From Candidatus Cloacimonadales bacterium (GTDB lineage: Bacteria > Cloacimonadota > Cloacimonadia > Cloacimonadales > JAFGVF01), in assembly GCA_963667035.1 (NCBI GenBank), contig OY762964.1, positions 384,001-448,000 of the forward strand: a stretch of DNA of 64,000 nt, written 5' to 3'. A program made the translations under genes and the position numbers. How positions within the stretch are numbered: position 1 is the stretch's first letter; each line of letters opens with the position of its first letter. The notes beneath the pieces were generated by a model that did no database searches, had not been told where the DNA came from, and saw nothing but the letters and a program-made list of their open reading frames with translations. Shown here piece after piece: positions 419 through 19,900 of this stretch.

Positions 419-494
<76 letters not shown>

Positions 495-505
495 CCTTTT
501 AGAAT

Positions 506-534
506 AGGGCTAACAATGAGTTAGCCCTTTTTTT
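506..534 (+). terminator. Intrinsic terminator after tRNA-Lys
   Basis: AGGGCTAAC-AATGA-GTTAGCCCT followed by a T-run. Confidence 0.85.
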
Positions 535-894
535 GTGTTGAAAATACCCTATTTACAAGTGTTTATGACTCTTCTTACTTGTAAATTAGTTATACTATAC
601 ACTAATAATTGCAGAAGATAAAGAAAATCTAATCTGTTTACAAATTGGATAAAGTCATTATAGATGCCTTGTTTTATAACCTATAGATTAGCAATTGTTA
701 GGATATAGATATTCATAGCGAGTTTCGGAAATGCCACTTAAAAAGCAAGTATAGATGAAATGGGCATATGTGTCAGTAAACTTACTAATCTAAACATAAT
801 CAGTCACAAAGCCTATAATAGTTTACTTAGTATAATCATTGTTTAGTACCTAATATCCTAATAGTGCTATAAATAGTTATTTTCAACTCCGACT

Positions 895-1232
895 AAAAGA
901 AAACCTCCTAGAGCGGAGGTCAATTTCAACTTTTTGGCATTGAAATGGTCTATGTCCCAACAGGGGCATTTGTCGTAACCCCTCCTTATGCGGAGGTCAA
1001 TTTCAACCTCAAATTCAATCCAAGAGAACTCGGAATGGCTAGTGTGTCGTAACCCCTCCTTATGCGGAGGTCAATTTCAACATGAAATGGTAGAAGAATA
1101 TATTGGATACTTTGAATAATGTCGTAACCCCTCCTTATGCGGAGGTCAATTTCAACACTAGGCATGGCTGTAGTGATGTCTTGTCTCATACAGAAAGTCG
1201 TAACCCCTCCTTATGCGGAGGTCAATTTCAAC
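895..1232 (-). CRISPR. CRISPR array 1: 5 repeats (36 nt, GTTGAAATTGACCTCCGCATAAGGAGGGGTTACGAC; trailer degenerate), 4 spacers of 38-41 nt
   Basis: Repeats at 895 (degenerate), 972, 1046, 1121, 1197; leader on the high-coordinate side and degenerate trailer on the low side imply minus-strand transcription. Confidence 0.97.
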
Positions 1233-1518
1233 CGCTACCATTTTCAACCCTCTGATAATGCACGTTTAAAATCCCATTTCTGCGAGTCTCCAAAAAATGA
1301 CCTAAAAAAAACCATTTTTAGAGAGGTCTGCAGGATTTCGTGTAACTCATTGATTACCAACAAGATACAAAGAAAGACAATAAACATAGATAAATGCTTA
1401 TTATACAATAGCTTACACGAATAGTCGGAAATAGTTTGCTGTATTAAATATAAGCAAAAATCGATTCACCGAAAAATTAGGTAATCTGCGGTACAGGTTG
1501 CTATAACCTGCACTTTGC
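1233..1518 (-). promoter_or_regulatory. CRISPR leader 1
   Basis: Homologous to 14420-14708; first 28 bp next to the repeat identical; IHF-consensus-like AATCAATGAGTTA at 1343-1355 (minus strand). Confidence 0.8.
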
Positions 1519-1634
1519 ATGATTCTTAAAAAACTACTCAGCTTACAAACACATCTATCACACTTTCAATTAGCAATATACGATATATACTTAAATCATA
1601 AAAACAGTCAATATAAATCAGTTTTTCAGAGTGA

Positions 1635-1901
1635 TTATTCAACAAAAAAGAAAAGTTCCGGTAATTCTTCGCCAATCACTTTCGAGTTTTTAGTACAATT
1701 CTTACACAATCTGAAGATATGAACTATGCCATCATCTTTTCTAATTGTTTCAATATCTCTCCTGATATGTTTAATCTTATTAGGTGTAGCTTCAACCAAA
1801 AACAAAGACTTCTGAATTCTTAACCCTTTCTTTTCTAAGTAGTGAGCAAGCTTAGTTCTTATCTTGTCACATGTAATATCGTAAGCGATAATATATGTCA
1901 T
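1635..1901 (-). CDS. cas2: CRISPR-associated endonuclease Cas2
   Basis: 88 aa, YIIAYDI N-terminal motif, RIQKSLF; downstream of cas1. Confidence 0.95.
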   Translation of the reverse strand: MTYIIAYDITCDKIRTKLAHYLEKKGLRIQKSLFLVEATPNKIKHIRRDIETIRKDDGIVHIFRLCKNCTKNSKVIGEELPELFFFVE

Positions 1902-4465
1902 AAGAATCTATAAGCTTTAAACTTAACACCAAGCAATAGAGAATTTTTAAATGATCTGACCATCTTCTCAATCCATACTTCATAGGTATATGATTGATTT
2001 TTAACGCTAATCTCTCTCTTCATAGTTGACTCAAATGCTCTGATAAAAGTTCTGAAACCTACAGAGTCAAGTTTCAAATATGACGAACCATCTATACTAT
2101 AAAAATTACTCTTAGTTATCTGCTTCTTGTGAATCAATGAAAGAACTATTCTATCAATAAGAAAGCGGAAGCATTCCATTAAGTCAGAAGCCAGTGCTTC
2201 ATGCGTTCCTCTTCCCATGTGAAAGATTCCGTTAAAAGAGTTGATTCCGTTTGCAATTAGTGACTCAGAGAAACGCCTATAGAGTAGTGAATATCCAAGT
2301 GATAAAAGAACATTGACCGGACCAATTGGAGGATGGTAGGATCTTGATTCAAATGGCATGGGAGCTATTAAATCTCTAAAATGCTTGAAGTATGTCTTAG
2401 CGGCATAACCTTCCATACCTCGGATTGATTCTATTGAGTTAGACTGTTGAATCTTATTTAGCATGGAGCCTAGTTGCTTCTCATTAATCTTTAATCTTTT
2501 AAGTAGTCGATACTGGTTTACAATCTTTGTATAGGCAATTTCTCTAACAAAATCAAGTTTGAAATTTGAATAGTCATAAGAGTTACTAGCATTGAATAAC
2601 TCAGCGGTATTCGATATCTTGTTATGAGTTAGATATCCCCCCAAGGGTCTTCCATGAATAGAAAGAAAGTAGATAGGTATCTGCTCTCTTATAGCTCTGT
2701 AGATAATTCCTCCGCTTATGCGAGGTTTACCAAAGATAAGGATTCTGCTTATCTCCTTCCATGTATATTTTGTTGTAGATTCTTTTGATTCAACGAATAT
2801 ATAATTTCCCCTTGTGCTTGCATACTTAATCGAAAATGACAAATATAGCGGTTTGGAATTGCAGTTTGTCAGTTTAGAAAAATCAGACCAATCGGTATTT
2901 TCAATCGGTTTTCTCTCAGGAATGAAGATGGATGATTCAGAGATTCTGTAGCCTAGGAAGCTTAATTGTGATGCTTGGGTAAACTCCAAATACTTATCCT
3001 CGTTTATCTTCAATCCTAAGTGTGTTAGCATTTGCTTTATCTGATTCAATATTTCTTCTTTATTATCGGTTTTACCTACAATAACCATATCGTCAGCATA
3101 TCTGATAAGTTTTAAATCTTTCCTGTTTCTAAACCAACGGTCAAATGCTAGCATTGCAAAGTTAGATAGAAGAGGTGAAAGTGTATTACCTTGAATAAGT
3201 TTCTTGGAGAAATACTTAGCTATAAGTTCTATCTCTTCCTGAGCAACAGATTGTGCTTTAAGCATAAGAATAATTTTAGAGATTGATATAGAATCAAAAA
3301 ATGCACTTACATCAAGCTTCAGGCCCCATTTAAAACCTATATCAAACTCTTTTTTTACTGCAGAGGCAGCTAAATGATGAGAGTATCCCTTTCTATAAGC
3401 GAAGCAACTATATGTTAACAACCTTTGGAGTCTCTTGTCAAAGATGTCTGTGAGAATTGAAAGAACCAGTTTATCTATAATCCTATAAGAGGCAATGTTT
3501 CTATAGTTCCCGTTCTTCTTTTTTGCTCTGAACATATCCGGAGGTGAAGGATTGTAATCCGACATTACTATCTGATTGGATAGCTTTCTTAAATAATCGG
3601 GATGCTCTAAGAGTTCTGCACCTGTCATATCATTCCCGGACTCATTGCTTTCTACAAGCTCTTGCAATTTTGAGTGGAGATTGGAAAATGAGAATTTTGA
3701 GTGATGAAGAGTATTCATATCATATATCGGGTTAGGTAATTCTTCAACATAATAGAATCCGAACCCAAAAGTTCTATTCTTTCCAAGACCGGTAAATTGC
3801 CCCCAATGAAACAGTTTCAGTAACTCTTGAGAAAATGTTCCTCTTAGTACTATCCCTCCAATAATCCCACCAATTGTTTTTTTATACTCAATATCTAACC
3901 AGATGAAGGAGCTATTGCTCATACAGATTCCTGAAGTATCGGGAACAGAAAGTTCAAGAGCATTACTTAAGTGCTGTATGAATTCAGCTAAATCAAAGTG
4001 AAAAGGGTGAAAGAATCTTCCTTCTGATTTATCCATTCGTTTTAAACGTAGAGGAGCTTGAAAGATAAGTGTTATCTTCTTCAAGTTCTGAGTAGTAAGA
4101 TTTGAGTCTGCATGGGGTTGAAATTCAAAATAGTTCCAGTTCTCTAATACAATAGTTTCATTTAATACAAAATGATTGCCTCTAGTGATATAGTTCTTCT
4201 CATTAGTTTCAAACCATTTCAATAGTACTAATCTTCCTTCATTATTTGTTGCTATGTTGACCGGGACAATATCATTTTTCTTCAAAGTATCAGGAGATGG
4301 ATATGGAATAATGTTTATTTCCAGTTCTTTTGCAGAATTATCAGAGACTTTTCTAAGCTCGTTTCTAAATAAAGCACTCCAATGTATACCTGTATATATT
4401 GGCAAGTTAGTTATATCATTAATAACTTTGAATTGAATGTTGAACCAGTAACGATAGTACTTCAT
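1898..4465 (-). CDS. cas1: Cas6-reverse transcriptase-Cas1 fusion
   Basis: Cas6 G-rich loop GLGKNRTFGFG (~aa 225-235); RT motifs FAYRKG, LDVSAFFDSI, QGNTLSPLLSN, RYADD; Cas1 motifs RGMEGYAAKTYF, NVLLSLGY, GIFH, LASDLME. Confidence 0.93.
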   Translation of the reverse strand: MKYYRYWFNIQFKVINDITNLPIYTGIHWSALFRNELRKVSDNSAKELEINIIPYPSPDTLKKNDIVPVNIATNNEGRLVLLKWFETNEKNYITRGNHFVLNETIVLENWNYFEFQPHADSNLTTQNLKKITLIFQAPLRLKRMDKSEGRFFHPFHFDLAEFIQHLSNALELSVPDTSGICMSNSSFIWLDIEYKKTIGGIIGGIVLRGTFSQELLKLFHWGQFTGLGKNRTFGFGFYYVEELPNPIYDMNTLHHSKFSFSNLHSKLQELVESNESGNDMTGAELLEHPDYLRKLSNQIVMSDYNPSPPDMFRAKKKNGNYRNIASYRIIDKLVLSILTDIFDKRLQRLLTYSCFAYRKGYSHHLAASAVKKEFDIGFKWGLKLDVSAFFDSISISKIILMLKAQSVAQEEIELIAKYFSKKLIQGNTLSPLLSNFAMLAFDRWFRNRKDLKLIRYADDMVIVGKTDNKEEILNQIKQMLTHLGLKINEDKYLEFTQASQLSFLGYRISESSIFIPERKPIENTDWSDFSKLTNCNSKPLYLSFSIKYASTRGNYIFVESKESTTKYTWKEISRILIFGKPRISGGIIYRAIREQIPIYFLSIHGRPLGGYLTHNKISNTAELFNASNSYDYSNFKLDFVREIAYTKIVNQYRLLKRLKINEKQLGSMLNKIQQSNSIESIRGMEGYAAKTYFKHFRDLIAPMPFESRSYHPPIGPVNVLLSLGYSLLYRRFSESLIANGINSFNGIFHMGRGTHEALASDLMECFRFLIDRIVLSLIHKKQITKSNFYSIDGSSYLKLDSVGFRTFIRAFESTMKREISVKNQSYTYEVWIEKMVRSFKNSLLLGVKFKAYRFL

Positions 4466-6045
4466 TGCTTGGGAAATGGTGACAACTTCAATATTCTATC
4501 AATTAGTACTTCTTTAAGTATTGGTAGCCAATTGATAAAAGTAATATGCTTCATGCTTTCTATTTCGGAGATAATCAGTTTAATTGTTGAACTTTGTTCT
4601 TCTATCTTGTTAGTACCGTGATTCAAATTAATGCCTAGACATTCTTCTATAGTTCCTAAGTTTATTGGCTTTCCTTGATGAATAAAATCATTACGTTCTA
4701 ATGAAAGTCTTTTAATCTTATCCATAATGGACATTATTGAATCAAAATTTACGCCTTCTTTTATCCCTTGGCTAATAATCATGTTATAACTTATCCAATT
4801 GGTTTTATAATAAGTTTGTTCATCTGCAGTTTTCCTATCATTAGTAACTGTCACTTTTAAAAAATAAGGTAGCTCTACTTTAAAGGGGATATGTCTCAAG
4901 TCGAAGAAGAACTTCTTAGGTTTATTTCTATCAGCCTGTATAAAAACAACGGATTTAGAACCAATAGTTTTAATCTTATCCATTATCAGTAACTCACCTG
5001 TAGAAATAAGGGTAGTACTCATACCCCACCAATTTCCTTTTCTTGATTCCTGAATTGATCTCAACAAGTTACAACCGACAGCATTTTTAGAATCAAGCAT
5101 CTCATTCATTGTTATCAATCGTGTAATCAGATTACTATTCTTATGTTCTTTCTTGTAAACATCGATTAATTTCTCTGTTTCCTTTTTATCTCTATACAAC
5201 CATGATACCGCAATCTCCAGTAATCTGAAAGCATGAATGTCAAGTCTCTTCAGTTTAAGCTCATTAGCAATACTAATAGCACCTAAGAAGTCATAATCTT
5301 TAACTCTTTGTAACAGTGCAAATTTAAGGGTATATTTATTTTGAATATCCTTTTTCCGGCTGATTCTTATCCTACCCTTAGATTGTTCCATTAAACAATT
5401 TCTGTTTGGGAAGTAAGCATTGATAGCAGTATCTAGAGCATTAGAGATTCTTGGCATTCCTCCGGAACTGAAGACTTGAACAGATGAGATATTTCCATTA
5501 TCTTGCTTCAAAATATCCTGCATGAAAGAGTCTATTTGTCTATATGCAAATTCGTCTGTTATATCTGCATTTCTTGCATTACAATCTTTACAAAGATTAA
5601 TAACACTTATATCATTTATATACTTTTCATAATGATTCATCATCTCATCTATAAATGATTTGATAATGCTTGAGTATAAATATGGTTCTTTTTCTAGAAA
5701 CCCTTTTAGATGAATAGATAGATTCTCTTTACTTATATGACTTCTATCAGTAGTTAGCAAAACAAGCTTGTATTCTTCTTCATTACTAAGAGATTGCAAC
5801 ATAGCTTCTGTCAAAGGGAATGTAAGACACTTATCACTTTCTATAAAGTCCTTAAGTGTTTGTTCTTGTTCTCCTTCTTTTCCAAACATAGGATTCCAGT
5901 TTAGCTCTTTCTTTTTTAATGCACATGATAGCTCACTTTGAACTTCATTAAGTGAAGTTTTATTAAAGCTGTCATAGTTATAATTTCTTCCGGATACATA
6001 TAATTGAACATCTCTCTGTCCTATGGTTTGTATCAACAGAATCAT
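4462..6045 (-). CDS. Csm6-like CARF-HEPN ancillary ribonuclease (putative)
   Basis: N-terminal LIQTIGQRD and SSGGMP CARF-like motifs, YDFLGA helical segment, C-terminal RNDFIH (R-X4-H HEPN); lies within the cas operon. Confidence 0.7.
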   Translation of the reverse strand: MILLIQTIGQRDVQLYVSGRNYNYDSFNKTSLNEVQSELSCALKKKELNWNPMFGKEGEQEQTLKDFIESDKCLTFPLTEAMLQSLSNEEEYKLVLLTTDRSHISKENLSIHLKGFLEKEPYLYSSIIKSFIDEMMNHYEKYINDISVINLCKDCNARNADITDEFAYRQIDSFMQDILKQDNGNISSVQVFSSGGMPRISNALDTAINAYFPNRNCLMEQSKGRIRISRKKDIQNKYTLKFALLQRVKDYDFLGAISIANELKLKRLDIHAFRLLEIAVSWLYRDKKETEKLIDVYKKEHKNSNLITRLITMNEMLDSKNAVGCNLLRSIQESRKGNWWGMSTTLISTGELLIMDKIKTIGSKSVVFIQADRNKPKKFFFDLRHIPFKVELPYFLKVTVTNDRKTADEQTYYKTNWISYNMIISQGIKEGVNFDSIMSIMDKIKRLSLERNDFIHQGKPINLGTIEECLGINLNHGTNKIEEQSSTIKLIISEIESMKHITFINWLPILKEVLIDRILKLSPFPKQ

Positions 6046-6121
6046 ATATATTTCCTCAATTAAAGTTTAACTATGATTAACGAGTCCATTTAAGAAGCTA
6101 TTATGACTATTTGAGATTGTT

Positions 6122-8026
6122 TTATTCACAATACTCTTGCCTTCTTAACTTAGCATAATCCCCACGAATTTTTGCATGCCAACTCATTATTTGCCCATTC
6201 TCTTTTGGATAAGAACCTGTTTGAGATACAATTTTGAAATATTTCCCTATTGACTCTATAAAAGTTTGTTGCATTTTTTTATAATTAATTCTTAAGTCTT
6301 CGTTGAAACTTTTATAGTCTTCATTATTGATAAAACCATTATCAACAAAGAATTTTACTGTACCTAAACCTTTGTTTTTAGCATAACCTATCTGATGAGC
6401 ATATTTAGCTTCCTCAAATTTTTCTTCTCCATCAAGCTCTAGTGCAAGTTTAAGTAGTAAGTATTCATTTATAGTTAGGTTATTAAAGTTTACTCTAAAC
6501 TTGAAATGTATCGGTTTGTTGGGAGAGGCTTCTATAGCCTCATGCATTATCACACTATAATCTATCGGATTGCTTAGTGAAGGAGCAGGGTTTGTAGTTC
6601 TCTTGAACACTTTTCTTCCGGAGAGTCTTGTACATCCATTTCTGTTTAACGGTTCACCATAAGTAACAACTTTATTTCTATTGTTTTGTTGAAGATAAAA
6701 TTCATAAGATGATGGTTTCGGAGAACCTGTTCTAGGTAGAATAATATCTGTGGTTTTTAGATCCTGATCACAAATAGCGAAGTTAAAATGAACTTTACCG
6801 GACTTACTGTTATTATCAACCGAGTAACCAAACATTTCATCTACAATTGATTTCCCATCATCTACTTTGATATCATCAGGGAAATCTTGGGAGTTTATTT
6901 CTTTGTCAAATGCCCATGGATAGTAGAATGTTTTACCAAAAGTCTTTACATGTATAAGAGTTTTTTCAATAAACTCCTCTGAGTTTTCCCTAAGAACTCG
7001 TTTACTGCTCTCTGTATACTCGTAGAAGATTACGTCTCCTTGTTTTAGCTTAATCATAGCATCCCAGTTCTTTTTTATTTCTTTCTCATGTACATTAACA
7101 TCAAGAGGATGATCCTCTAGATGATATTTTTTAAGAGTTAAGAATGTGCTCTCGTACCCATTTTTAGTTTCTTTGTTTATCGAATGTTGGTTACCCGTTA
7201 TTCTGAAGTATTGTTTTGGAATATAGATACAGTCATGGTTCCCTGTATGTATATTACCGTTAAATAATCTTGCAAAGGTTCCATTACCATCTAGACCATT
7301 TGAATACTTGAGACAGTAAAGAGTAGTTTCTTGAGCATTGTCATCATAGTTACGTATTCTCCAACGTCCTTGTTGATTATGAAGCCTATGATTGTAAGGA
7401 TTCAAGTTAAGTCTATTATTATGTATCGTAGTGTAATTCTCATAGTCTTGCTTAGTAGAGTATATGACAGGGACATCCTTCAATGAACCAAAATGCGAAA
7501 AAGTAAGAGAATTATCATGTGTGAATAGTACTATCCCTATTCCCATTTTAACAGAATCTGATGGACGAAAATTCAAGTTAGGTCTCATGATAAATCCTTT
7601 ACTGTTAACTCTTCTCATTTTCGTGTTAGTATATGAAGCAATAAATGAGCTGATGCAACCTTTAAGGGTGTAAGGAGAAATGAGTATTCTATCGTTAACT
7701 TTGAGGGGATATATGTGTGTTGAATTACTCTCCCCATCAGAATGTTCATTTCCGACTAATAATTGGTTCAAAGCATACATTGAACAGTTTAGATAACCGG
7801 TATATAGTTTATTTCCATCCATCTCTGTTGTATTAAACTTAGCTTGTTTGATATCTTCGTGGTTCTGATTATTCTTAATCGGAATAAATGTATATGGTAA
7901 TCTGTCTCTATTGAATCTAATTCTGTTTTCCAGCTCAGTAGGATTAACATCAGTTGTATTGTTATGATTACGGTTTCCACGGTTGTAGTTTTGGTCATGG
8001 TTATGATGTTCACTTCTGTTGTTCAT
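6122..8026 (-). CDS. cas7: Type III-D Cas7 with large insertion (TIGR03986-like RAMP)
   Basis: PYTFIP, PYTLKG, MFGY, SGKVHF, SPKPS-YEFYLQQ, SGRK, IGYAKNKGLG motifs. Confidence 0.85.
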   Translation of the reverse strand: MNNRSEHHNHDQNYNRGNRNHNNTTDVNPTELENRIRFNRDRLPYTFIPIKNNQNHEDIKQAKFNTTEMDGNKLYTGYLNCSMYALNQLLVGNEHSDGESNSTHIYPLKVNDRILISPYTLKGCISSFIASYTNTKMRRVNSKGFIMRPNLNFRPSDSVKMGIGIVLFTHDNSLTFSHFGSLKDVPVIYSTKQDYENYTTIHNNRLNLNPYNHRLHNQQGRWRIRNYDDNAQETTLYCLKYSNGLDGNGTFARLFNGNIHTGNHDCIYIPKQYFRITGNQHSINKETKNGYESTFLTLKKYHLEDHPLDVNVHEKEIKKNWDAMIKLKQGDVIFYEYTESSKRVLRENSEEFIEKTLIHVKTFGKTFYYPWAFDKEINSQDFPDDIKVDDGKSIVDEMFGYSVDNNSKSGKVHFNFAICDQDLKTTDIILPRTGSPKPSSYEFYLQQNNRNKVVTYGEPLNRNGCTRLSGRKVFKRTTNPAPSLSNPIDYSVIMHEAIEASPNKPIHFKFRVNFNNLTINEYLLLKLALELDGEEKFEEAKYAHQIGYAKNKGLGTVKFFVDNGFINNEDYKSFNEDLRINYKKMQQTFIESIGKYFKIVSQTGSYPKENGQIMSWHAKIRGDYAKLRRQEYCE

Positions 8027-8516
8027 GGTACAACCTCCATTCGTCTTTATCTCTTAATACTAATATGTCATTCGAATCCAAATTTTCAGGAATAGCTCCA
8101 ATGTCTTGAGCAAAAGAGAATCGATAATTTCTGTTTGCAGATTTTGAATCCAAAACTTTACTCTTCCCTTCTTTCTTTGAATGTAGTATTTCAAATTCAA
8201 ATTTTTCTGCTTTATCCCTGCTTATTTCAGATAGATGATAAACATAGTCTTTGCAAGAGCTATCTGTTGCAATAAATAGGAATTGTACATCATTGTTAAA
8301 AAATACTAATCTGATACAATCAGAGTAGCTTTCAAATGAATCATAATTGATTTCTTTATGTAGAAATATACCTGTATTGCCTTTCTTAGCTTTTCCCTTC
8401 TCTTTCTCAAGGACTATGTTAGCAAGACATATTGTCCATCTTCTTTCTCCTACAACCCAAAGGTTTCGGTACTTGTTCACTAGATCCTTTATCTCTTCAA
8501 ATCTAACGATATTCAT
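8010..8516 (-). CDS. csx19: Csx19-like type III-D subunit
   Basis: ~168 aa from ATG 8516 (GAGGAGG RBS); canonical position between cas7-cas7 and cas7-insertion; assignment mainly positional. Confidence 0.6.
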   Translation of the reverse strand: MNIVRFEEIKDLVNKYRNLWVVGERRWTICLANIVLEKEKGKAKKGNTGIFLHKEINYDSFESYSDCIRLVFFNNDVQFLFIATDSSCKDYVYHLSEISRDKAEKFEFEILHSKKEGKSKVLDSKSANRNYRFSFAQDIGAIPENLDSNDILVLRDKDEWRLYHEQQK

Positions 8517-9726
8517 TGTCACCCTCCTCAATGCTGATATTTGGATAACAGCCATTTGCCCCTAGTGATATAAGTCTTTTATTACAACCTTCACTAATGA
8601 AATTCATTAGATCTCTAGCATCTATATCACACGGAATTCTTATCAAACCCATAGCATTAGCATGAAACAGTCGTTCTTCATTAAATTTCCCACTCCCATA
8701 AACAGCTCTGGTAAATTCATCTTCCGCATGACGTTCAATATTGATTAAGTGCTTTCTTATATCATCGTGATTTACGTTTACCATTAAATCGGGAAAGTAG
8801 ACATTCCCATGATTTGCTCCATCTTGCCCAAAGAATTCTTTCAACCATTTACTATATCCATACTTCTCCAAGTACATTGAGAATGTACCTTTTAAAGATG
8901 AACCCGGTATGTAGAGGTGTTTTCCTGTATTAACAAAAATCCCGGTAGAAGGATTATCAGCGAGACTACTATGACTAACACCACCCTTTATTAGAAGGGC
9001 ATTGGTTCCATATCCATCTTCTTCATCATCTACTGATACAACTATTTCCCAAGTATTATAACGTTTTTTTGCTTGATGATTCAGAGGTACATCAATTGAT
9101 TCTAAAGGATTTCCATCCAGATAATCACGATAGTTTTCTTTGGATATGCAAGTTTTTGTAGCTTTCTCTAATCTGCAAAAACCGTTACCGGATGTACTAT
9201 GACCTCCAAAGAAAGCTCCTTCCTTTTCCCAAGAAGTTAATACTGTTTCTACCCATCTAGTAAATGACTCAATACTCTGTTTCTTGTTCTTGAGAGAAAG
9301 ATTGTCGATTGTTATCGAGATATCGAAATCTACATTTTCAGGTTCTATTTCCCAATAGCTGAAAAGTTGTTTTTGCTCAGCCGTTTTTGTCTCTCTATTA
9401 ATTTTAACTCGATTTCTTATCATAGCGTTCGAATTGTATTGCATTAAGGATACAGTTCTAAAGATTAATGGTGATGCGTATTCTTCTTCATCTTCGGATT
9501 TAAAAAGCTTATTCCAAAGTGTTGTTTCATCTTTCGTAGGAGTAACGACATTCTTAAGAGTATCAAAGAAAACACCTGAGATAGAAGTTCCCGGTATAAC
9601 TAATTCCCCCAAACCATTCCTTATGATTTCGAAGGCACCAATAGGAGATTTCTGCCCACAACCTATATGAAGAGCAGATTTTAACTTAATCTTTGCATTA
9701 TAAATAATTTTAATCGGATTACACAT
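8503..9726 (-). CDS. cas7: Cas7-Cas7 double RAMP fusion
   Basis: Two RAMP units: LHIGCG...IPGTSISG...GGHSTSGNG and IKGG...IPGSSLKG...SLGANG; start refined to ATG 9726. Confidence 0.85.
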   Translation of the reverse strand: MCNPIKIIYNAKIKLKSALHIGCGQKSPIGAFEIIRNGLGELVIPGTSISGVFFDTLKNVVTPTKDETTLWNKLFKSEDEEEYASPLIFRTVSLMQYNSNAMIRNRVKINRETKTAEQKQLFSYWEIEPENVDFDISITIDNLSLKNKKQSIESFTRWVETVLTSWEKEGAFFGGHSTSGNGFCRLEKATKTCISKENYRDYLDGNPLESIDVPLNHQAKKRYNTWEIVVSVDDEEDGYGTNALLIKGGVSHSSLADNPSTGIFVNTGKHLYIPGSSLKGTFSMYLEKYGYSKWLKEFFGQDGANHGNVYFPDLMVNVNHDDIRKHLINIERHAEDEFTRAVYGSGKFNEERLFHANAMGLIRIPCDIDARDLMNFISEGCNKRLISLGANGCYPNISIEEGDNEYR

Positions 9727-11809
9727 TCTGCCCCCTTTTGCTCTCAATTCTCTTTTTTATTCCTAAGAATAAGAGCCTAATTAATTCATACTTATCATTT
9801 CTCTCGTTAAACTCTGAAGCATTAAATAGCTTTTCAAACTTCTCCCATTTTTCTTTATTCAATGTTGTTTTACCATGTGCTATCTCTTCCAAGATTTTTT
9901 CTGAGTCATATTTTGAATCCATGTATGAGATAATTTTACTACAGAAAGTAACTGAGCTCTCATCGGATTTATACTCTGAGAGACCTTTATTACTATTCTT
10001 AAGTTTTTCAATGAATTGAAACTGCTCATTAATTCGGTTTAGCTTTTTTATTTGGTGTATAGCAATTTTAGGGTCACTCTTTACTGTTGCATTAAACTCA
10101 GGAGTAGTAAAATTGAAATCATGGACAGGCAGGTTAACTATAAACTTACCAAATCCCTCATTTGTATTGAATCCTAAACCTTTACTTCCCAAGCTAACTA
10201 AATTCGTTATGTTTATGTTATCAGATTTCGACTCAAATAAAAAACATGAGCCTTTTTTTATCACTTTTTCTGAGAATCTTCGTAAACCTGATGTTCCAGA
10301 GAAACTCTGATGGAGTTCAGTTTCAACTTTGCTATCGATCAATTCGTATGAGTCAGGTAATCCAAAGTCTTCAGCTTTCAGCATGGTTTTGGGGTTTAGT
10401 TTATCATCATACAAGATAACATCAGATGTGAGGGTGATGGTTATCCTATCTGTTGACTTAGGAGGTTGAATGCTATCTTCTGAAACAGAGGTTATTTCAA
10501 CTATTTTTACAGGTTGAGCTCCACGTCCCACATGTAAGTTATATGTACCATTCAACCAATCATGATAGATTACTTTAAACATCTTTGCGTCTTCTATTGA
10601 ATTAAAAGAGATGTTCCCAATAAATCTTGTTCCCTTATATATCATTTCCTGAGTGAAAACAGCATTTTTCTCTGTAGTTTGAGTCGATTCCGTAATCCTG
10701 TTTCTTAGAACTAGTTCTATTTTAGGAGAATATACTTTAGCGTTTTCAGGACACATCTTTTTATCAACAAAAACTATATACTCATCACTGAAGCTTTTAT
10801 CACTTTGAGAGTTCATACTTTTATACGTTAGGGTATTGCGAGTTACGAGATTAGGAAATGCTTTTTTATCCATTGTCGTAGGAGTAATGTTCAATAACCA
10901 ATGAGGTATCTCATATTCATAACAGTCTTTTTTCCTTTTATTCAGGTAGTAATTTTTATATGAGTTGGTACTCTTACGTTTACGTAATGATAATGGAATC
11001 GGTATAACCTCGTGTTTCGCACTGGATTCTTTAGGTATAGGATAAAAGTTTGTTATTCTTATATTATCGTGGTCTATGATACTTGATTCGGATCCAAGTT
11101 TAAGAAGTACATTTCTAAACATACCTAAGGCAGTTGTTCCTTTTATATAGTTTAGAGTATGGATGATGTTTCCTGTTTGCCCTGCACCTGCGATACAGGT
11201 ATTATTCAGTAATTCAAGAATAATTCTGTAATCCTTTATATTCGTTACACCATCAAGAGATTTTACATCCTTGTCTTTATTGGGTATAATGGTTGTCTTA
11301 ATTGCACCAAAACCTCTTCGCCTTAATCCTCCAAATAGCTTTAGATTTTTGATCCCGAGTTTTAGTAAACCTTCAATTTCTTTTTCATTATTACCGAGAG
11401 TTTGGAATTCCAGGCTACAATCAAAGATTGCCCCTTTAGAACCAAATTCAATATCCCTCAAAGCACCTTTATCTTCGTCTTCGATAATGTCATCAACTTT
11501 AGTGAAAGTATGAATAACGAATGGGTTTAGGGCTGTTTCATCTTGATTATAGTTAACAGAGACATCCAAAGAACCAAGATTACCATATTTAAAGATAGAA
11601 TTGTATGATTCCCTATATTCAGTAAGAACATTTTTTACTTCTCGACAAGATTGTCTTAACAAACCTTTCAATGTCTCAGTATTCAGAGCAGGATTCCCTT
11701 CATCATCTTTCATCTGACCATCACTATATAAACCAACACAATCCATACCTGTACCTATATGAAAATCCTCAAGAGTTTCTATTTTAAAATTAATCCTAAT
11801 GAGTTTCAT
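9719..11809 (-). CDS. Cas7-Cas5(Csx10)-Cas11 fusion
   Basis: Cas7 (FHIGTG, TLKGLLR, GGLRRRGFG), Cas5-like (YIKGTTALG, VGRG, GLGFNTNEGFG), ~110-aa helical C-terminus inferred to be Cas11. Confidence 0.8.
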   Translation of the reverse strand: MKLIRINFKIETLEDFHIGTGMDCVGLYSDGQMKDDEGNPALNTETLKGLLRQSCREVKNVLTEYRESYNSIFKYGNLGSLDVSVNYNQDETALNPFVIHTFTKVDDIIEDEDKGALRDIEFGSKGAIFDCSLEFQTLGNNEKEIEGLLKLGIKNLKLFGGLRRRGFGAIKTTIIPNKDKDVKSLDGVTNIKDYRIILELLNNTCIAGAGQTGNIIHTLNYIKGTTALGMFRNVLLKLGSESSIIDHDNIRITNFYPIPKESSAKHEVIPIPLSLRKRKSTNSYKNYYLNKRKKDCYEYEIPHWLLNITPTTMDKKAFPNLVTRNTLTYKSMNSQSDKSFSDEYIVFVDKKMCPENAKVYSPKIELVLRNRITESTQTTEKNAVFTQEMIYKGTRFIGNISFNSIEDAKMFKVIYHDWLNGTYNLHVGRGAQPVKIVEITSVSEDSIQPPKSTDRITITLTSDVILYDDKLNPKTMLKAEDFGLPDSYELIDSKVETELHQSFSGTSGLRRFSEKVIKKGSCFLFESKSDNINITNLVSLGSKGLGFNTNEGFGKFIVNLPVHDFNFTTPEFNATVKSDPKIAIHQIKKLNRINEQFQFIEKLKNSNKGLSEYKSDESSVTFCSKIISYMDSKYDSEKILEEIAHGKTTLNKEKWEKFEKLFNASEFNERNDKYELIRLLFLGIKKRIESKRGQNV

Positions 11810-13298
11810 TCTGTCCTCCGGATTTGACTTTACAGAAATCCATTAACTCAATAATATCTAGAGCTGTATTCAAAAGTATGTTGTCACCTAAGGAATGATA
11901 TTCAATTAGATTGCTCGGGAAATTTAAATACTTGCTTAATAGTTCAGTATTAGCTTTTCCTGTTTTCAGTATAGTTCTTAATTGCTTGTATTTGTTTCTA
12001 CCTGCAGCATCTTTTTCATTGGTAGCTAAATTGTGTTCATTTTTTGATTGTTCCCATATTTTCATAGCTGTCTTAATTCTACAAGGTCTCTGAGTTAGTA
12101 TTTCGATTGTATCTTCATATTTGTTTAGATAGTTTATCTCTCGAATGGTTTCAATATCTTCGGAACCTGATGGGAAATGTACATGCCAGTCAATTGTATT
12201 TACGTATTCAATACTATCATCTACATTCCAAATTCTACTTTTAACTTTTGCTGAAGAAAGTAAAGACTCTGCTAATGCGTGAGCTTGTGAGAACGGATAT
12301 GTGTATTTCGTGAAAGCTATTCCCGCTGAAATGGTTGTATTAGATAAAGCTGTACAAAACTTGTCTACAATATCAAATGCGATTTCAGGAACCGATATTA
12401 TTAACAAATCATCTCCTCCCAGCATTAAGACCTGATATTTATGATTGTCATGGATTTTACATGATGCTTCCAGAGCCTTTCGGTAAGCTTCTCTTCTCGA
12501 GAACCAGAACTTTTCATATTCAACTAATGTCTCAAACATGGGCTTTAGTTTTAATAACTCTCTTTTATCTTTGAAACAGTCCCCCATTGCATTACCATCA
12601 ATTGCAATTACTGCCATTTTATTGTTTGACGGAATTATTGAAGCCTTTGCAAGACTCTCAAAGTCAACTGGCATATTATCTGCTTTATTTGTTTCTTTTA
12701 GAAAAGTGGATAGAAAATCTGAAGTTTTTCTACTGTAGAAGTCTTCCCCCTGTTTCTTAATATGTTTAGAAAACTGGCTTTCATTTTTACTTTTTACTAG
12801 TTGAGGATTAATCCCATCATCCGAGGGGTAAAAGTACGGATTATCAATAAATATGTCGCTTGGCTCTTTACACAGTGTTTCTGTTCCTTTATCCTTGAAA
12901 TCATCAAGTGTCTTTATCTCCTCAAAATCACATTCAATGCATCTTATTGAGAGACTAACTCCCGGAATTATTTCCTTTCCTCTATTAAAAGCTGATAAAG
13001 CGAACTCCTTTGCCTCTTCAGATGTAGTAAATAAAGAATCGAAATGCCCACCTGCCGAACTGATTATCCCTTTCTCGAAATTTGCTTTCAAATCATCAGT
13101 TTCCCACTTCTCGTTAATCTCTATACTTGATATATAGTTAGTCCACTCTTCTGGAACATCATATTTTTCTCGAAGCTTCGGAAGTTCCTTCACAAAGAAT
13201 TCTCCAAGCAGAGAGTTTGCACCCAACATTGTTTTAAGTTTTGGAAGTTTAAAGATAAATGATTGTACTTTATTTGTTTTTAGGAATAAATAGACCAT
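11796..13298 (-). CDS. cas10: Cas10 (no HD domain, intact GGDD)
   Basis: 500 aa; VQSFIF N-terminus, SAGGH palm-1, DGNAMG and LGGDDL palm-2, ISAGIAF, IDWH. Confidence 0.92.
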   Translation of the reverse strand: MVYLFLKTNKVQSFIFKLPKLKTMLGANSLLGEFFVKELPKLREKYDVPEEWTNYISSIEINEKWETDDLKANFEKGIISSAGGHFDSLFTTSEEAKEFALSAFNRGKEIIPGVSLSIRCIECDFEEIKTLDDFKDKGTETLCKEPSDIFIDNPYFYPSDDGINPQLVKSKNESQFSKHIKKQGEDFYSRKTSDFLSTFLKETNKADNMPVDFESLAKASIIPSNNKMAVIAIDGNAMGDCFKDKRELLKLKPMFETLVEYEKFWFSRREAYRKALEASCKIHDNHKYQVLMLGGDDLLIISVPEIAFDIVDKFCTALSNTTISAGIAFTKYTYPFSQAHALAESLLSSAKVKSRIWNVDDSIEYVNTIDWHVHFPSGSEDIETIREINYLNKYEDTIEILTQRPCRIKTAMKIWEQSKNEHNLATNEKDAAGRNKYKQLRTILKTGKANTELLSKYLNFPSNLIEYHSLGDNILLNTALDIIELMDFCKVKSGGQNETH

Positions 13299-13519
13299 TG
13301 AAATCCTCCTTCATAGCATTGACTTGTTATCCTACATTTATAATTAAGTAAACTGCTGTTTTCGAGCAATTACCCTTTGAGCTTAGATTTACCTGATTAT
13401 TCAAAACCATGAATCTATAGATAAGCAATTATTCTTTCCGGTATCAAGTAGCCTTATAGAAAATACCTCAATGCCGAAACTCCGTATTATTCTCTTGGCT
13501 CCCGCTTCTTTTTGATCTT

Positions 13520-13596
13520 TTGGTCTACTCTTGCATTACCCTTGGGTTTCCCTTGCAAAGTAAGGGAAACCCAAGGGTAATGCAACGGAAACCTAA
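13520..13596. repeat. 11-bp-phased palindromic element with a perfect 24-bp inverted repeat
   Basis: TTGCATTACCCTTGGGTTTCCCTT (13531-13554) / AAGGGAAACCCAAGGGTAATGCAA (13562-13585). Confidence 0.85.
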
Positions 13597-13805
13597 GCTT
13601 ACTTTTTCAAATTCAATCCTCTAATCGTTATCTTATCGTTTAAGGTGAAGTGTGTAACTTATCAAGATTAAAACCCGATTATGGAACTGATAAACTGAGA
13701 GCCAATCAAATCGATGAAGGACTGATTGCTTGGATTTATCAATGTAATTGTATTTAGAGGAATGGGATTATTAATTAATCTCTAATGAAAACTGTTTATA
13801 TTTTC

Positions 13806-13829
13806 AAAAATCCTCTGCCGAAGCAGAGG
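13806..13829 (-). terminator. Probable terminator for the array 2 transcript
   Basis: Minus strand CCTCTGC-TTCG-GCAGAGG-ATTTTT. Confidence 0.7.
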
Positions 13830-13955
13830 TCATTATCTTCTGAGATTCTTCTTATTATCGCATTATTGCAGAGTTCTTTCGCAATATCAGTCCTCAGTTA
13901 TATAAATAATAACAACAATTAACAATCCGGCAATCAATTACTTTTCCCCTTAAAT

Positions 13956-14419
13956 AGACTAACCCCTCCTTATGCGGAGGTCAATTTCAACAAATTTGCA
14001 AAAGTGGAAAAATCCTTCTGATGTCGTAACCCCTCCTTATGCGGAGGTCAATTTCAACACAAGACTCACTAAGAGATCTTTGATAAAATTAAGCAATAGT
14101 CGTAACCCCTCCTAGAGCGGAGGTCAATTTCAACTCTCGAAGATAACGAGGGTAACCCGATAGCCGTGTCGTAACCCCTCCTAGAGCGGAGGTCAATTTC
14201 AACTTAAAGAGTGTGGTTTATTTATGAGCAATTACATTAGGTCGTAACCCCTCCTAGAGCGGAGGTCAATTTCAACTCCTATAAAGGACAAGGAATTCTT
14301 GGCAAATGTAAAAGTCGTAACCCCTCCTAGAGCGGAGGTCAATTTCAACTATTTGAAACAATTCTAAGAGCAACCAACTGAAGGTCGTAACCCCTCCTAG
14401 AGCGGAGGTCAATTTCAAC
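13956..14419 (-). CRISPR. CRISPR array 2: 7 repeats, 6 spacers of 31-40 nt
   Basis: Repeats at 13956 (degenerate), 14023, 14099, 14168, 14241, 14314, 14384; same repeat family as array 1. Confidence 0.97.
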
Positions 14420-14708
14420 CGCTACCATTTTCAACCCTCTGATAATGTACGTTTAAAACCCCATTTCTGTGAGTCTCCCAAAAAAGACTCAAAAAACACC
14501 CTATTTTGGAGAGATCCGCAGGATTTTATATAACTCCATGACTGTCAATAAGATATAGAAAAAGACAGAAAAAGTGACTAACGTTAGCATTTACAAAGAG
14601 TTATGCCAATATCCATAATCCTTTTGCTCTATCAAAGACAAGCAAAAAACGATTCACCGCAAAATTCGAAGAAGCTGCTGTACAGATTGCTTTAACCTGC
14701 ATTTAGCA
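14420..14708 (-). promoter_or_regulatory. CRISPR leader 2
   Basis: Homologous to leader 1 (1233-1518). Confidence 0.8.
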
Positions 14709-15114
14709 AACTTCAAAAACATAAGCACATTGGGTGATAAGTTTACAAGCACTTCTATAATATTAACAATGATCTAGTTTAAATAAGTAACAAAACCGGA
14801 AGATGTCAATAAAAAAATGTTTTAATAGATATTAAAATAAATTATGAGGTTATTATTGATGATGTATAACTGGTAAAATCCCTAACCGGAATATTTTCCA
14901 ATATGTTAATAGGCTCATCAAGGGTACAGAAACCTTTTAAAGGAAAAGTTAGTATATGACTTGGCAGTTTCTTTAGTAGCAGTTACAGCAATTATAAGAG
15001 TTGTTCTATTTATGAGAAAATTTATTAATCGGATAATGATTCATGCTTCTTCCCAATAGAAAACGATTTCGTCTATTATGATTATAATTTAAATATGTGA
15101 GCAATTAGATTAAT

Positions 15115-15340
15115 TTGTTTTATACATTGACTGTTGAAAATGATTCCTTGATATCGAGTTGGGATGATGTAGGAGCTAGTAGTTATTCTGTATTCAATGC
15201 GAATACTTCTTTCCCAATAATGTGGGGAAACATCTCTGAAATAGGTTCTTTCGAAACTAACGGAAATAGAGTTAGTTGGGTTATTAATCTACCTGAATTA
15301 CCTATGTAGTATTATAGAGTAACCGCTACAAATAATGTTG
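15115..15340 (+). pseudogene. Fragment of a secreted-protein gene (Ig/Fn3-like 'SW..VGASSYSVF...YYRVTA' module)
   Basis: Frame continues YYRVTATNN past an in-frame TAG at 15307-15309; no good start or RBS. Confidence 0.45.
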
Positions 15341-15525
15341 TTATTAGAGAAATTGGACAAGCTTTATGGATTAACAATCTTAGATAAAAGAGGTAAGATA
15401 AATGCATCTCAACCACTTCATAGTTCTCTTATTTTGTAATACAAAATAGAATGCCAACAGAATTCGTAAAATAGAGAATATTTTGTTTATTATAGCACTG
15501 AAGGCTATAAACAATACTTCCACTT

Positions 15526-15577
15526 ACTCTTAATCAACGGGTCTAGGGTTCTAGTCCCTACAGGAGTACAACCTTTT
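15526..15577 (+). repeat. Degenerate copy of tRNA-Lys 3' half (attR-like)
   Basis: ACTCTTAATCAACGGGTCTAGGGTTCTAGTCCCTACAGGAGTACAACCTTTT, 48/52 identical to 449-500. Confidence 0.92.
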
Positions 15578-15578
15578 A

Positions 15579-16307: not shown

Positions 16308-16475
16308 ATTCACCTCACTTCTACTAGAAAACAACTGTTAACTTGAATGTCAAATAGTATTATCATTTTCTGAGAGTTCATTCATTTTTATTGCTGTGTT
16401 AGCCAATTCATGGGAGGTAACCCTCCAATCTCCAGATTCTCTCATGACATATAACCACAACCAACTTACGAGACT

Positions 16476-16526
16476 CTTGCATAATCCTTGCATAAATCTT
16501 GCATAACTATGCAAGAACGATGCGAG
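16476..16526. repeat. 11-bp-phased CTTGCATA repeats followed by inverted copies
   Basis: CTTGCATA at 16476, 16487, 16498; TATGCAAG at 16508, GATGCGAG at 16519. Confidence 0.75.
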
Positions 16527-16630
16527 TTTTTTGTGACATGTATGCTTTGATTTTGTGCTTGTTAATCACGGGCAAAACGGGAGATCATAACGTGAAAGTT
16601 TCATGGCAAACTCCATCACAGCATAATCAT

Positions 16631-16755
16631 CCCACTGTTTTTCCACTGTGCAGGCACTGCTAACCCGGTGTTTCAGTGCGTGGATAGTGGGATTACAGTG
16701 CCTGCACAGTGCGAGCACAGAGCGTTGACAGAATAGGGAGTGTGAGAGAACAGTG
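16631..16755. repeat. 11-bp-phased CACTG/CAGTG element, copy 1
   Basis: CACTG at 16633, 16644, 16655; CAGTG-like at 16674, 16685, 16696, 16707, 16718; homologous to 48717-48839. Confidence 0.8.
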
Positions 16756-16949
16756 AGGGGGCTGAAATGACGTAACTTATTGGAAAACTCACTGCTTACG
16801 GTTCTATGATAACGAGTACAGCGTAAAAACTAAGAAATCATATCGTTATTGCTATTCGAGTGAAGATTTAAAGTCATAATTATAAGCAATTAATTTATTG
16901 ACAATGTTATCTAATATCTAATAATCTTAATCCATAACTGGAGGTATAC

Positions 16950-19900
16950 ATGAAGAAAACTGTACTTTTATTTATTCTATGTTTATTTACACTTCTAACT
17001 GCAGTCCCTGCATCACCATACCCAATATCGGTGAAACAACCGGACGGCTCAAAGCTTACCATCAAATTGAAAGGTGATGAATATGTGAACTGGGCACAAA
17101 CGGAAGACGGATATACTCTTCTGAAAGATAGCGGTTTTTACTGCTATGCAACTAAGAGCGGAGAAGACTTGGTGAGTTCCGGAATTCGAGCTCATGATAA
17201 CGAAAAATCTGTTGAACGTAGTTTCCGCAGTATGAATGAACCGGATTTACGCTTTTCCCAAAGACAAATTGATGAGAAATTAGCTACTTTTCCTAAAAGG
17301 GACTACTTGCAAAGAGTGAGTAGATTTCCAACTAGCGGAACACGTAATCTGCTTATGATTCTAGTTAACTTCTCTGATACAAGTACACTTTACTCTCAAA
17401 ACGACTTTAACAATTATATGAATCAAGTGAACTATAACGGAACTGGTAGTTTCAAGGACTATTATCTTGAATGTTCACATAATCAACTGACAGTGAATAC
17501 AACCGTTACTGCATGGGTAACAGTTAGCGGTACACATGATTCTTACGGTCCCGAATCTATGTGGGATATTCTTGCTTATCAAGCCGTTCAAGCAGCTGAT
17601 GCAGCAGGGGTTGATTTCTCATTGTTTGATAATGATAATGACGGTTCGGTTGACGGAGTAGCCATAATTCATCAAGGCTCCGGTCAGGAAGCTACGGGTG
17701 ATACCGATGATGTTTGGTCTCATAGTTATACTTTGGAAGCTAGGTATAGTACGGGACAGAGGACATTTGACGGTGTATTGGTAGGCGAGTATACTATGCA
17801 ACCTGAGATATACGGAACAGGAACAACAATGTCTACTATAGGTGTTATGTGCCACGAGTTTGGTCACAATCTAGGTGCACCTGATTATTATGATACGGAC
17901 TATTCAGCGAACGGTCAACAGTCGGGAACCGGATACTGGGATTTAATGGGTAGCGGATCATGGAATAATAACGGATACACTCCTGCACATCATAATCCGT
18001 TTACTAAATGGAAACATTATGGCTGGACATCTCCTGCACTTTTGCAAGCATCTAGCAGAAAGACTCTTGATAGCGTAGTGGACAGTAATAATGATTTCTA
18101 CTATTTTGAGACTTCAACCGCCGATGAATACTTTCTTTTGGAAAACAGACAGAAAGTTGGATTTGATGCTTCACTTCCCGGACACGGTTTGATGATATAT
18201 CATGTTGATGAAGACTATATTTTTGCACATCAAAATGCTAATGATATCAATGCTACAAGTCATCAGGGATTATATCCTAAAGCTGCAAACGGTACTGTAA
18301 ACTATAGCTCATGTCCTTTCCCCGGTACATCTAATAATACCCTCTTTAACGATGACTCTACACCGAACAGTAAGTCTTGGGCTGGTGAAGATAGTTATCA
18401 GAATATTGTAATTATCAGCGAATCAGGTGGAAATGTAACCTTTGATTATCTCTGGGATACAGCTATTGCAGATATAACAACTCCAGATACTGACGATTAT
18501 GTTTATCGTGGTACATTTGTTCCGGTGGCAGTAGACGTCTCGACTTTCTATTGTGCTGTCAATTATGTAAGCTTAACTATTAAGAATTCAAGTGGTGTAA
18601 CTACACGTTCACTATATGACTATACTGCACCATATTCTTTCATATTGAATACCGAGAGTTTATCTGTCGACAGATATTCTCTTACAGCACAGGCTCATAT
18701 TGACGGTGGTATCACTTTAACAGACCTTATACATTTAAATGTTAATAGTGATCCGGAACCTGCCACTAATCCAACTCCCGAGGATTTAGCAGTTGACGTA
18801 GAGCCGTCTACACTTCTATCATGGTTACAGTCAACAACCGGAATAGACCCGGATGCTTATAAACTATACCTCGGGACAACCAATCCACCCACGACTTTGG
18901 TTATGAATGATAATGTAACAAGCTTTAATCCTACTCTTAACTATGGAACTACATATTACTGGCAGGTTGTTCCTTATACTGTAGAGGCTAAGTCTGCTAA
19001 GGGAAATGCCACAAACTGCCCTGTTTGGTCATTCACAACAATGGAAATCCAAGCAACGGATGATACACCTTCGGGGAATATTACTCCGGTGAATGATTCC
19101 GAAATTCCGGAAGGAACAGCTATCACTGTAGAAGACCCACCTGTAACACCGGAAGTTCCCGAAGGCTCGATAGCCATTGAAGACGTTGTAATCTCCGTTA
19201 CTTCTTCGACTCCTGTTGAGCTTACTGTTACAATCTATTTTGATAGTTATGCAACAAGTGTCTATTATGTTGAGGGTGGAGTGTATATACCGGACGAAGA
19301 CTTAACCTGGGATATTGATAATGTCTCCTTTGATTATATGTTTGCAGGGACAACAAAAGGTAGTTATACATTTGTTGTGACAGAGGAAGGTATTCCGTTG
19401 GCAATATCATTTTCTTTGTTTGAGGCTGAAGTGTTAACTGCCGAAGATGTTGAGATTCATTGGGTAACTGAATCGGAAGCTTACATTAATCATTATAATG
19501 TCCTAAGAAGCAAAGAAGATCCTGCGGAAGAGATGACGAATTTGACTATAGATTCACCTATCTTTGCTAAACATAATGAAACGACAACCGACTATTACTA
19601 TACTGATAAAGAGTTTAAGCAAGGCGAAACCTATTTCTACTGGTTAGAGGCTGTTGATTACAGTGGGCATTTCTCGCTGTACGGTCCAATAGAAGTGACT
19701 TGTGAATATAATGAAAATCCTGAGGATATTCCCGAAGCAAGTGTCACATCACTCACAAGTTTGTACCCTAACCCGTTTAATCCTAATCTGAATATCAGCT
19801 TTAGCTTGAAAGAGGAGCAGGATGTCTCAATTGAAATTTACAATACCAAAGGACAATTAGTATCTACCCTTGCAGGAGAACATCTGCAAGAAGGTGAATA

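Follow-up and report, generated by a model that had tools for sequence, protein, structure and literature searches.

How does a cas operon come to lie between two arrays of CRISPR (short palindromic repeats, clustered and regularly interspaced) whose repeat variants are nested in mirror order, and could the repeats themselves have been the sites at which this arrangement was put together? The question is raised by a stretch of 64,000 nucleotides (nt) from the genome of a Candidatus Cloacimonadales bacterium (contig OY762964.1, positions 384,001 to 448,000; hereafter the window, whose own numbering is used throughout). Within 895-14419 of this window lies a complete CRISPR-Cas locus, comprising array 1, its leader, an eight-gene minus-strand cas operon that runs from 13298 down to 1635, and array 2, to the right of which lies a second leader. 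The operon is of type III and III-D-like, and one of its genes encodes a fusion of Cas6, reverse transcriptase (RT) and Cas1. We regard it as probable, if not strongly so, that both arrays are recombinant, an A-type and a B-type locus, named after the two repeat variants, having exchanged DNA by crossover within the 36-nt repeats.

Repeat variants and array polarity

A pattern search finds 12 copies of the 36-nt repeat in the window (0 matches in 100 shuffles), set in two arrays of the same direction, and the whole genome, a single contig of 3.10 Mb, holds the same 12 copies and none besides. Array 1 (895..1232, minus strand) has five repeats, starting at 895, 972, 1046, 1121 and 1197, and four spacers; array 2 (13956..14419, minus strand) has seven repeats, starting at 13956, 14023, 14099, 14168, 14241, 14314 and 14384, and six spacers. 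Both show what is expected of a CRISPR array, namely direct repeats, at least three in number and near-identical, with unique spacers of about the same length between them. The 10 spacers measure 31-41 nt, each is unique in the genome, and none is common to the two arrays. Searched against their own genome, they find nothing elsewhere except chance matches of 13-17 nt; against 50,697 phage records, array 1 yields one chance-level match (E 0.3) and array 2 none. An open frame of 95 amino acids (aa) at 1137-1424 on the plus strand, which overlaps both array 1 and leader 1, has no family match and is, almost certainly, no gene.

The repeats come in two loop variants, A (TTATGC) and B (TAGAGC), which differ at exactly three adjacent bases; the 10 full repeats are otherwise identical at every position, and no intermediate loop form occurs among the 12. 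From left to right, array 1 reads B,A,A,A,A and array 2 reads A,A,B,B,B,B,B, so that all inner repeats are A and all outer repeats are B, a pattern described in the initial annotation and confirmed here at every one of the 12 repeats. Both arrays begin on the left with a degenerate repeat, that at 895-930 being so in its left 9 bases and that at 13956 in its left 5, as is usual in terminal CRISPR repeats. Since the predicted folds of the A and B repeats are identical (-11.2 kcal/mol), the loop looks neutral and thus usable as a lineage marker. Six A and six B repeats can be distributed over arrays of five and seven in 924 ways, of which 20 show no more than one switch in any array and eight are nested; because repeat duplication already predicts blocks, it is the mirror order that forms the informative part of the pattern.

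What the order means depends on which end of each array is the older. Leader 1 (1233-1519; with the intergenic DNA up to the cas2 stop, 1233..1634, minus strand) and leader 2 (14420-14708; with a part colinear with the leader 1-to-cas2 intergenic region, 14420..14815, minus strand) are 76% identical over 291 nt, their initial 28 nt being identical. Both are also homologous to the leaders of three relatives, and a profile made from those three alone recovers both flanks (E 6e-17 for leader 1, E 1e-13 for leader 2). Each array is thereby bounded by a conserved leader at one end and by a degenerate terminal repeat at the opposite end. At the left end of array 1, the minus strand of repeat 895 itself holds a hairpin (921-902) followed by UUUUCUUUU, which is terminator-like; at the left end of array 2, a T run follows a hairpin at 13812-13829, again on the minus strand. 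As the right-hand homologous flanks, the leader profile, the degenerate leftmost repeats and the left-end hairpins with their T run all agree, new units enter on the right, and the old-to-new order proposed earlier is borne out. Judged by its sequence, the degenerate repeat 895-930, a hairpin plus U-tract, may double as the terminator of array 1. The trailer flank of array 1 (534..894) is confined to this genome, with no DNA match in the same-genus genomes G001-G005, and does not resemble the flank on the trailer side of array 2. The leader profile finds no leader-like remnant in 13299-13811. A 13-mer at 875-887, considered as the remnant of a repeat end, was rejected with a score inside the shuffle range.

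Could the mirror order be an artifact of wrongly resolved repeats? We consider this very improbable. The assembly was checked against Logan contigs, not reads, from three runs (X1-X3) of one sample, at a depth of ~4-7 per run. A 559-nt contig equals 447-1005 with 0 differences and extends from the tRNA side through the B repeat at 895 and a spacer to the loop of the A repeat at 972; a 102-nt contig equals 14027-14128, again with 0 differences, and runs from an A loop through a spacer to a B loop; a third, of 12,759 nt, equals 1231-13989 with 0 differences. The links from leader to last repeat lie outside the listed pieces, because the initial 28 bases are common to both leaders, and these unbridged links, together with the depth, are what an artifact would have in its favor. 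However, the B-to-A and the A-to-B junction each lie inside single contigs, and both arrays are thus chimeric whichever way the leaders join; the genome, moreover, is one 3.10-Mb contig, and no alternative joint occurs among the Logan contigs listed for the three runs. Logan contigs of a further run, X4, from another sample under the same species label, include none on this stretch. The pattern, the polarity, the two chimeric junctions and the leader homology are thus directly established.

Exchange within repeats and its rivals

Given leaders on the right, what history could have left this order? Leader-proximal copying cannot leave an otherwise-A array with a B repeat as its oldest unit, and evolution in place is therefore insufficient for array 1; the earlier argument that leader-templated duplication cannot give array 1 a B trailer while giving array 2 an A trailer holds in its logic. 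That the same three loop bases mutated independently, one array going from A to B and the other from B to A, verges on the incredible: nothing beyond the neutral look of the loop speaks for it, and it would require an exact three-base reversal with no intermediates among the 12 repeats. A "giant spacer", that is, insertion by Cas1-Cas2 of a 13-kb piece between two B repeats, was considered and rejected: the insert must start and stop inside spacers, and prespacer length is tightly fixed in known CRISPR systems.

Exchange inside the repeats is the most economical reading of the mirror order, and we hold it with modest confidence. Two diverged versions of one CRISPR-Cas locus would have existed, the A version comprising the TTATGC loop, leader 1 and the cas operon now seen, the B version the TAGAGC loop and leader 2. 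An A-type circle consisting of a six-repeat array, leader 1, cas2 to cas10 and the trailer region would have joined a six-repeat B array by one reciprocal crossover, which would produce both chimeras in one step and leave the cas operon between a B/AAAA array and an AA/BBBBB array. Alternatively, the interior of a B locus with two arrays could have been replaced through a double crossover, with the same outcome. The leaders differ by 24%, a depth of divergence compatible with two long-separated lineages. That an exchange occurred, which piece moved and in what form the incoming DNA arrived are matters we infer. The initial annotation had an A-type module entering a B-type locus, a proposal that is supported in part: repeat-internal exchange stands as the best reading, within which the cas cassette may have been the mover, by circle or by double crossover.

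Several points weigh against exchange. First, perfect homology for the crossover extends just 14-18 bases on either side of the loop. Second, array 2 taken alone, with old A and new B repeats, could fit evolution in place. Third, the alignment of the array 1 side with that of array 2 continues beyond the leaders to ~1617, ~20 nt short of the cas2 stop. This colinearity implies that the B block once had cas2 as its neighbor or is a copy of a block that did, and duplication of a resident block is possible. Fourth, the DNA between the cas10 upstream region and the array 2 trailer holds an element, here called element E (13805..13900, minus strand), that appears out of place. It consists of a repeat-like hairpin and a conserved block of ~60 nt, with the invariant blocks CTGAGA, TTGCGAAAG and TCTCAGAAGAAAATGACC on the minus strand, and is present in a single copy in the genome. 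The hairpin aligns to the repeat of the type found in genome G185, a close relative, with a score of 17, exceeding all 200 shuffles. In all three close relatives (G182, G015 and G185), homologues of the element lie between cas2 and the leader (L033:480-585, L043:5587-5692 and L042:19375-19480 in the three related loci). Here it is absent beside both leaders and stands instead at the trailer side of array 2, upstream of cas10, a displacement that requires extra rearrangements. Element E is perhaps the leftover of a third copy of the locus; it is terminator-like on the minus strand and may be a repeat-derived processing or termination signal. The segment 13867-13884, tried as a second decayed repeat, was rejected because its score lay inside the shuffle range.

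The fifth point is the lack of an unmixed parent. The initial annotation suggested looking in related genomes or reads for an uninterrupted B array or an all-A locus; neither of these, nor a circle junction, was found in the genomes, metagenome and viral contigs and Logan contigs searched. The exact repeat forms an array in none of 60 relatives (there is one single match with three mismatches, in G002), gives only chance single matches in other sequence and no arrays among GTDB species genomes (three loci) and JGI metagenome contigs (two loci), and has 0 matches in IMG/VR viral contigs. A looser pattern of the repeat family occurs in four of the 232 genomes of the phylum, namely the window's own and G015, G182 and G185, the latter three each with a different loop from the window's. 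The same three genomes carry the closest Cas6-RT-Cas1 proteins among the 232 (57-61% identity); they belong to the same order but to other families, and in the window's own family (11 genomes) there is no match. In a search of 5.8 billion proteins, 16 matches to the fusion reach E <= 1e-50, the top non-self one being 59% identical. The loop of the repeats in G185, G015 and G182 is GCATGC, which has four of six bases in common with A and two of six with B. As A is the nearer, the shortest path leads from the relatives to A and from A to B, and B thus derives from A, a point in favor of the exchange, since a B repeat stands at the old end of array 1. Next to these comparisons we record that G015 carries, between the leader and the cas2-side genes (L043:1490-1711), a 61-64-nt unit repeated four times in tandem, its array lying ~4.5 kb from cas2.

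Might the locus instead have been reshaped where it stands, with no imported cassette, from long-resident tandem array-leader blocks or loci through unequal crossovers, duplications and deletions? This local, stepwise history appears unlikely, though part of the evidence is in its favor: the block of array, leader and intergenic DNA occurs twice, the duplication reaching almost to the cas2 stop, and the stray element E, with its cas2-proximal sequence, abuts the array 2 trailer in the manner of a remnant of a further locus copy. The wider family also provides analogs. G027 has two arrays of the same direction flanking its Cas6-RT-Cas1 gene (L044:13092-13418 and 16904-17160). The repeats of these arrays are identical, their leader starts and degenerate terminal repeats match, and the entire array block is duplicated there. 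In G219, whose Cas6-RT-Cas1 is 35% identical, the leaders and terminal flanks of two tandem arrays (L045:12035-12281 and 12536-12929) are near-identical, so that duplicated blocks including terminal repeat and leader are seen in both genomes. Furthermore, the 7.3 kb upstream of cas10 lack any array in G185, the nearest relative whose contig extends far enough, from which it follows that array 2 was added in this lineage. However, a single exchange between two pure arrays, whether on one chromosome or between sister chromosomes, never yields the mirror order, and by our own reasoning at least three events would be required. Nor do the two arrays share a spacer, and tblastn with Cas proteins finds cas remnants neither beyond leader 2 on the right nor in the trailer flank of either array.

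The relatives bear on the crossover itself as well. In G219, one array has two variant sites in the order (L3,R1), (L1,R1), (L1,R3), (L3,R3), and its neighbor array is (L3,R3) throughout. Hybrid repeats thus stand at both ends of a block, which indicates that crossover inside repeats occurs in the wider family. Could shorter tracts have sufficed? Two separate short-patch gene conversions, each templated by the other array, might have turned the leader-proximal repeat of array 1 into A and that of array 2 into B, the change then being spread by new spacers. We rate this as improbable. The identical repeats and near-identical leaders of G027 do suggest homogenization between the arrays of one locus, and copying of a converted first repeat would be expected to leave runs of a single variant beside each leader. 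On the other hand, two events would be needed, with tracts limited to one repeat, from a starting point of an all-B array 1 and an all-A array 2, and the leaders, at 76% identity, have not been homogenized.

If exchange inside the repeats is nonetheless what happened, did the cas operon travel as a unit? A unit of ~13.4 kb, consisting of the cas10 upstream region, cas10 to cas2, the leader, the array and the trailer with element E, might be a self-contained cassette that leaves as a circle through array-to-array recombination, although we think this rather doubtful. Were it so, the cassette would land in any array of the same family, and orphan arrays would be the landing pads through which a genome is re-armed with cas genes.

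Precedents for repeat-mediated exchange

The notion that repeats act as exchange sites for a whole cas cassette, to which the pattern described here conforms, was put forward in the initial annotation and had already been published for Escherichia coli. Replacement of whole cas loci through recombination at the flanking CRISPRs was proposed in that species (Touchon & Rocha, 2010; PMC2886076), in a paper whose authors also read stretches of one repeat variant as a sign that the adjacent repeat had been duplicated. Subsequently, at the CRISPR-I locus of E. coli, a cas-E2 module that brought a leader and CRISPR units of its own was described as having replaced cas-E1, with degenerate terminal repeats suggested as anchor units (Almendros et al., 2014; PMC3903273). 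The present locus resembles that exchange in its combination of a cas set, a linked leader and proximal repeats of its own type beside older, distal repeats of the resident type: array 1 has a distal B repeat and then AAAA beside leader 1 and the cas genes, and array 2 is its mirror image. As far as those accounts go, the E. coli case concerns type I-E, one array at the exchanged side and many strains, with insertion sequence elements involved, whereas the system here is III-D-like with Cas6-RT-Cas1, both junctions are visible as mirror chimeras, and the evidence comes from a single genome.

Two other systems offer partial parallels. The type III-D locus of Vibrio vulnificus YJ016 (Gonzalez-Delgado et al., 2019; PMC6821258) also combines an RT-Cas1 fusion with two arrays, whose repeats are identical and whose leaders are similar. 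In contrast to the present locus, its arrays flank the adaptation module alone and its leaders diverge only past 119 bp; the available portion of that paper describes neither a variant pattern nor an exchange. In Streptococcus thermophilus, spacer gain through recombination between homologous arrays was detected as a rare signal, in 5 of 70 strains (Kupczok et al., 2015; PMC4524480). Exchange between homologous arrays as a source of mosaics is common to that study and ours, but there it was deduced from spacer order across strains and concerned spacers only, with no cas operon.

Repeat-mediated exchange of cas modules is therefore not new, and what the locus adds is a further instance of a process that had been proposed for E. 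coli. If our reading is correct, it constitutes a single-genome footprint of a cas operon set between arrays by repeat-internal crossover with both junctions kept, and it extends the E. coli proposal that arrays, and particularly their terminal repeats, are sites of loss and regain of cas modules. The setting is a little-studied lineage and a CRISPR system putatively able to acquire spacers from RNA. It opens no new question, and without related strains the exchange stays an inference.

The cas operon and its genomic setting

What would the moving piece have encoded? At the array 1 end of the operon, all of whose genes lie on the minus strand, cas2 (1635..1901; PF09827 61.4 bits, TIGR01573 57.9 bits) overlaps the 3′ end of the gene for the Cas6-RT-Cas1 fusion (1898..4465), in which the Cas6, RT and Cas1 domains form one protein of 855 aa (PF10040 37.6, PF00078 99.6 and PF01867 190.4 bits, each above its cut-off). 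A 527-aa gene follows (4462..6045) that has no Pfam or NCBIfam match and no tblastn match in the G185 locus. Next come a type III RAMP of 634 aa (6122..8026), TIGR03986-like at 127.7 bits, and a small 181-aa protein (8010..8555) with no family match and 39% identity to its G185 counterpart; from its position, one may guess at a Cas11-like role. The remaining genes encode a Csx7/Csm3-like RAMP of 414 aa (8503..9747; PF03787 69.2 bits, TIGR02581 61.2 bits), a Csx10-like RAMP of 696 aa (9719..11809; PF03787 35.2 bits, TIGR02674 41.8 bits) and a short Cas10 of 500 aa (11796..13298; PF22335, the Cas10 palm2 family, 44.2 bits), to which the G185 homologue aligns across residues 1-500. The Cas2, Cas1, RT, Cas6, RAMP and Cas10 palm2 families pass the Pfam cut-offs, and every match to the NCBIfam III-D subtype models lies below its curated cut-off (Csx10 41.8 against 177, Csx7 61.2 against 108, TIGR03986 127.7 against 161); it is for this reason that we call the system type III and III-D-like. 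Csx19 was not found with the Pfam and NCBIfam libraries.

To the left of the locus, a tRNA-Lys gene with anticodon CTT (419..494, plus strand; called by ARAGORN, 69.5 bits with the Rfam tRNA model, the tRNA being all that an Rfam scan finds) is followed by a terminator hairpin at 506-528. In G001 the tRNA and its terminator are conserved as far as 533, and the stretch 534-15572 has no match in the same-genus genomes G001-G005. Both here and in G001, one flank comprises a protein sorted by the type IX secretion system (T9SS) together with the tRNA-Lys gene, and the other flank a thioesterase; in G001 they enclose ~10 kb of other genes, including one for a 1410-aa STAND-type NTPase. At the far border here, abutting the thioesterase stop codon, lies a decayed copy of the 3′ half of the tRNA-Lys gene (15523..15578, plus strand), in which 51 of 56 bases match 446-501 and which is not called as a tRNA. 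A direct repeat of a tRNA 3′ end at the far border of DNA absent from relatives is what marks a tRNA island. A classic tRNA-integrated island was nevertheless rejected: no integrase gene or remnant was found in the 15-kb genome-specific stretch, and the tRNA terminator conserved with G001 remains on the left, beside the intact tRNA.

The G+C content of the locus stretch is low (33.6%, compared with 35.6% for the genome), and its tetranucleotide composition is ordinary. Beyond leader 2, 14816..15522 is non-coding and contains no recognizable gene remnant, including in the tblastn search with Cas proteins; a Pfam scan of nine stop-to-stop frames of 14842-15523 yields nothing better than E 0.06, and the G+C content of 14720-15522 is 29%. 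Farther to the right, a dispersed intergenic repeat of ~100 nt at 16627-16727 (in a longer form, 16409-16728) has 38 further matches in the genome and dozens in G001, and here lies upstream of a gene for an M6 metalloprotease with a T9SS sorting domain.

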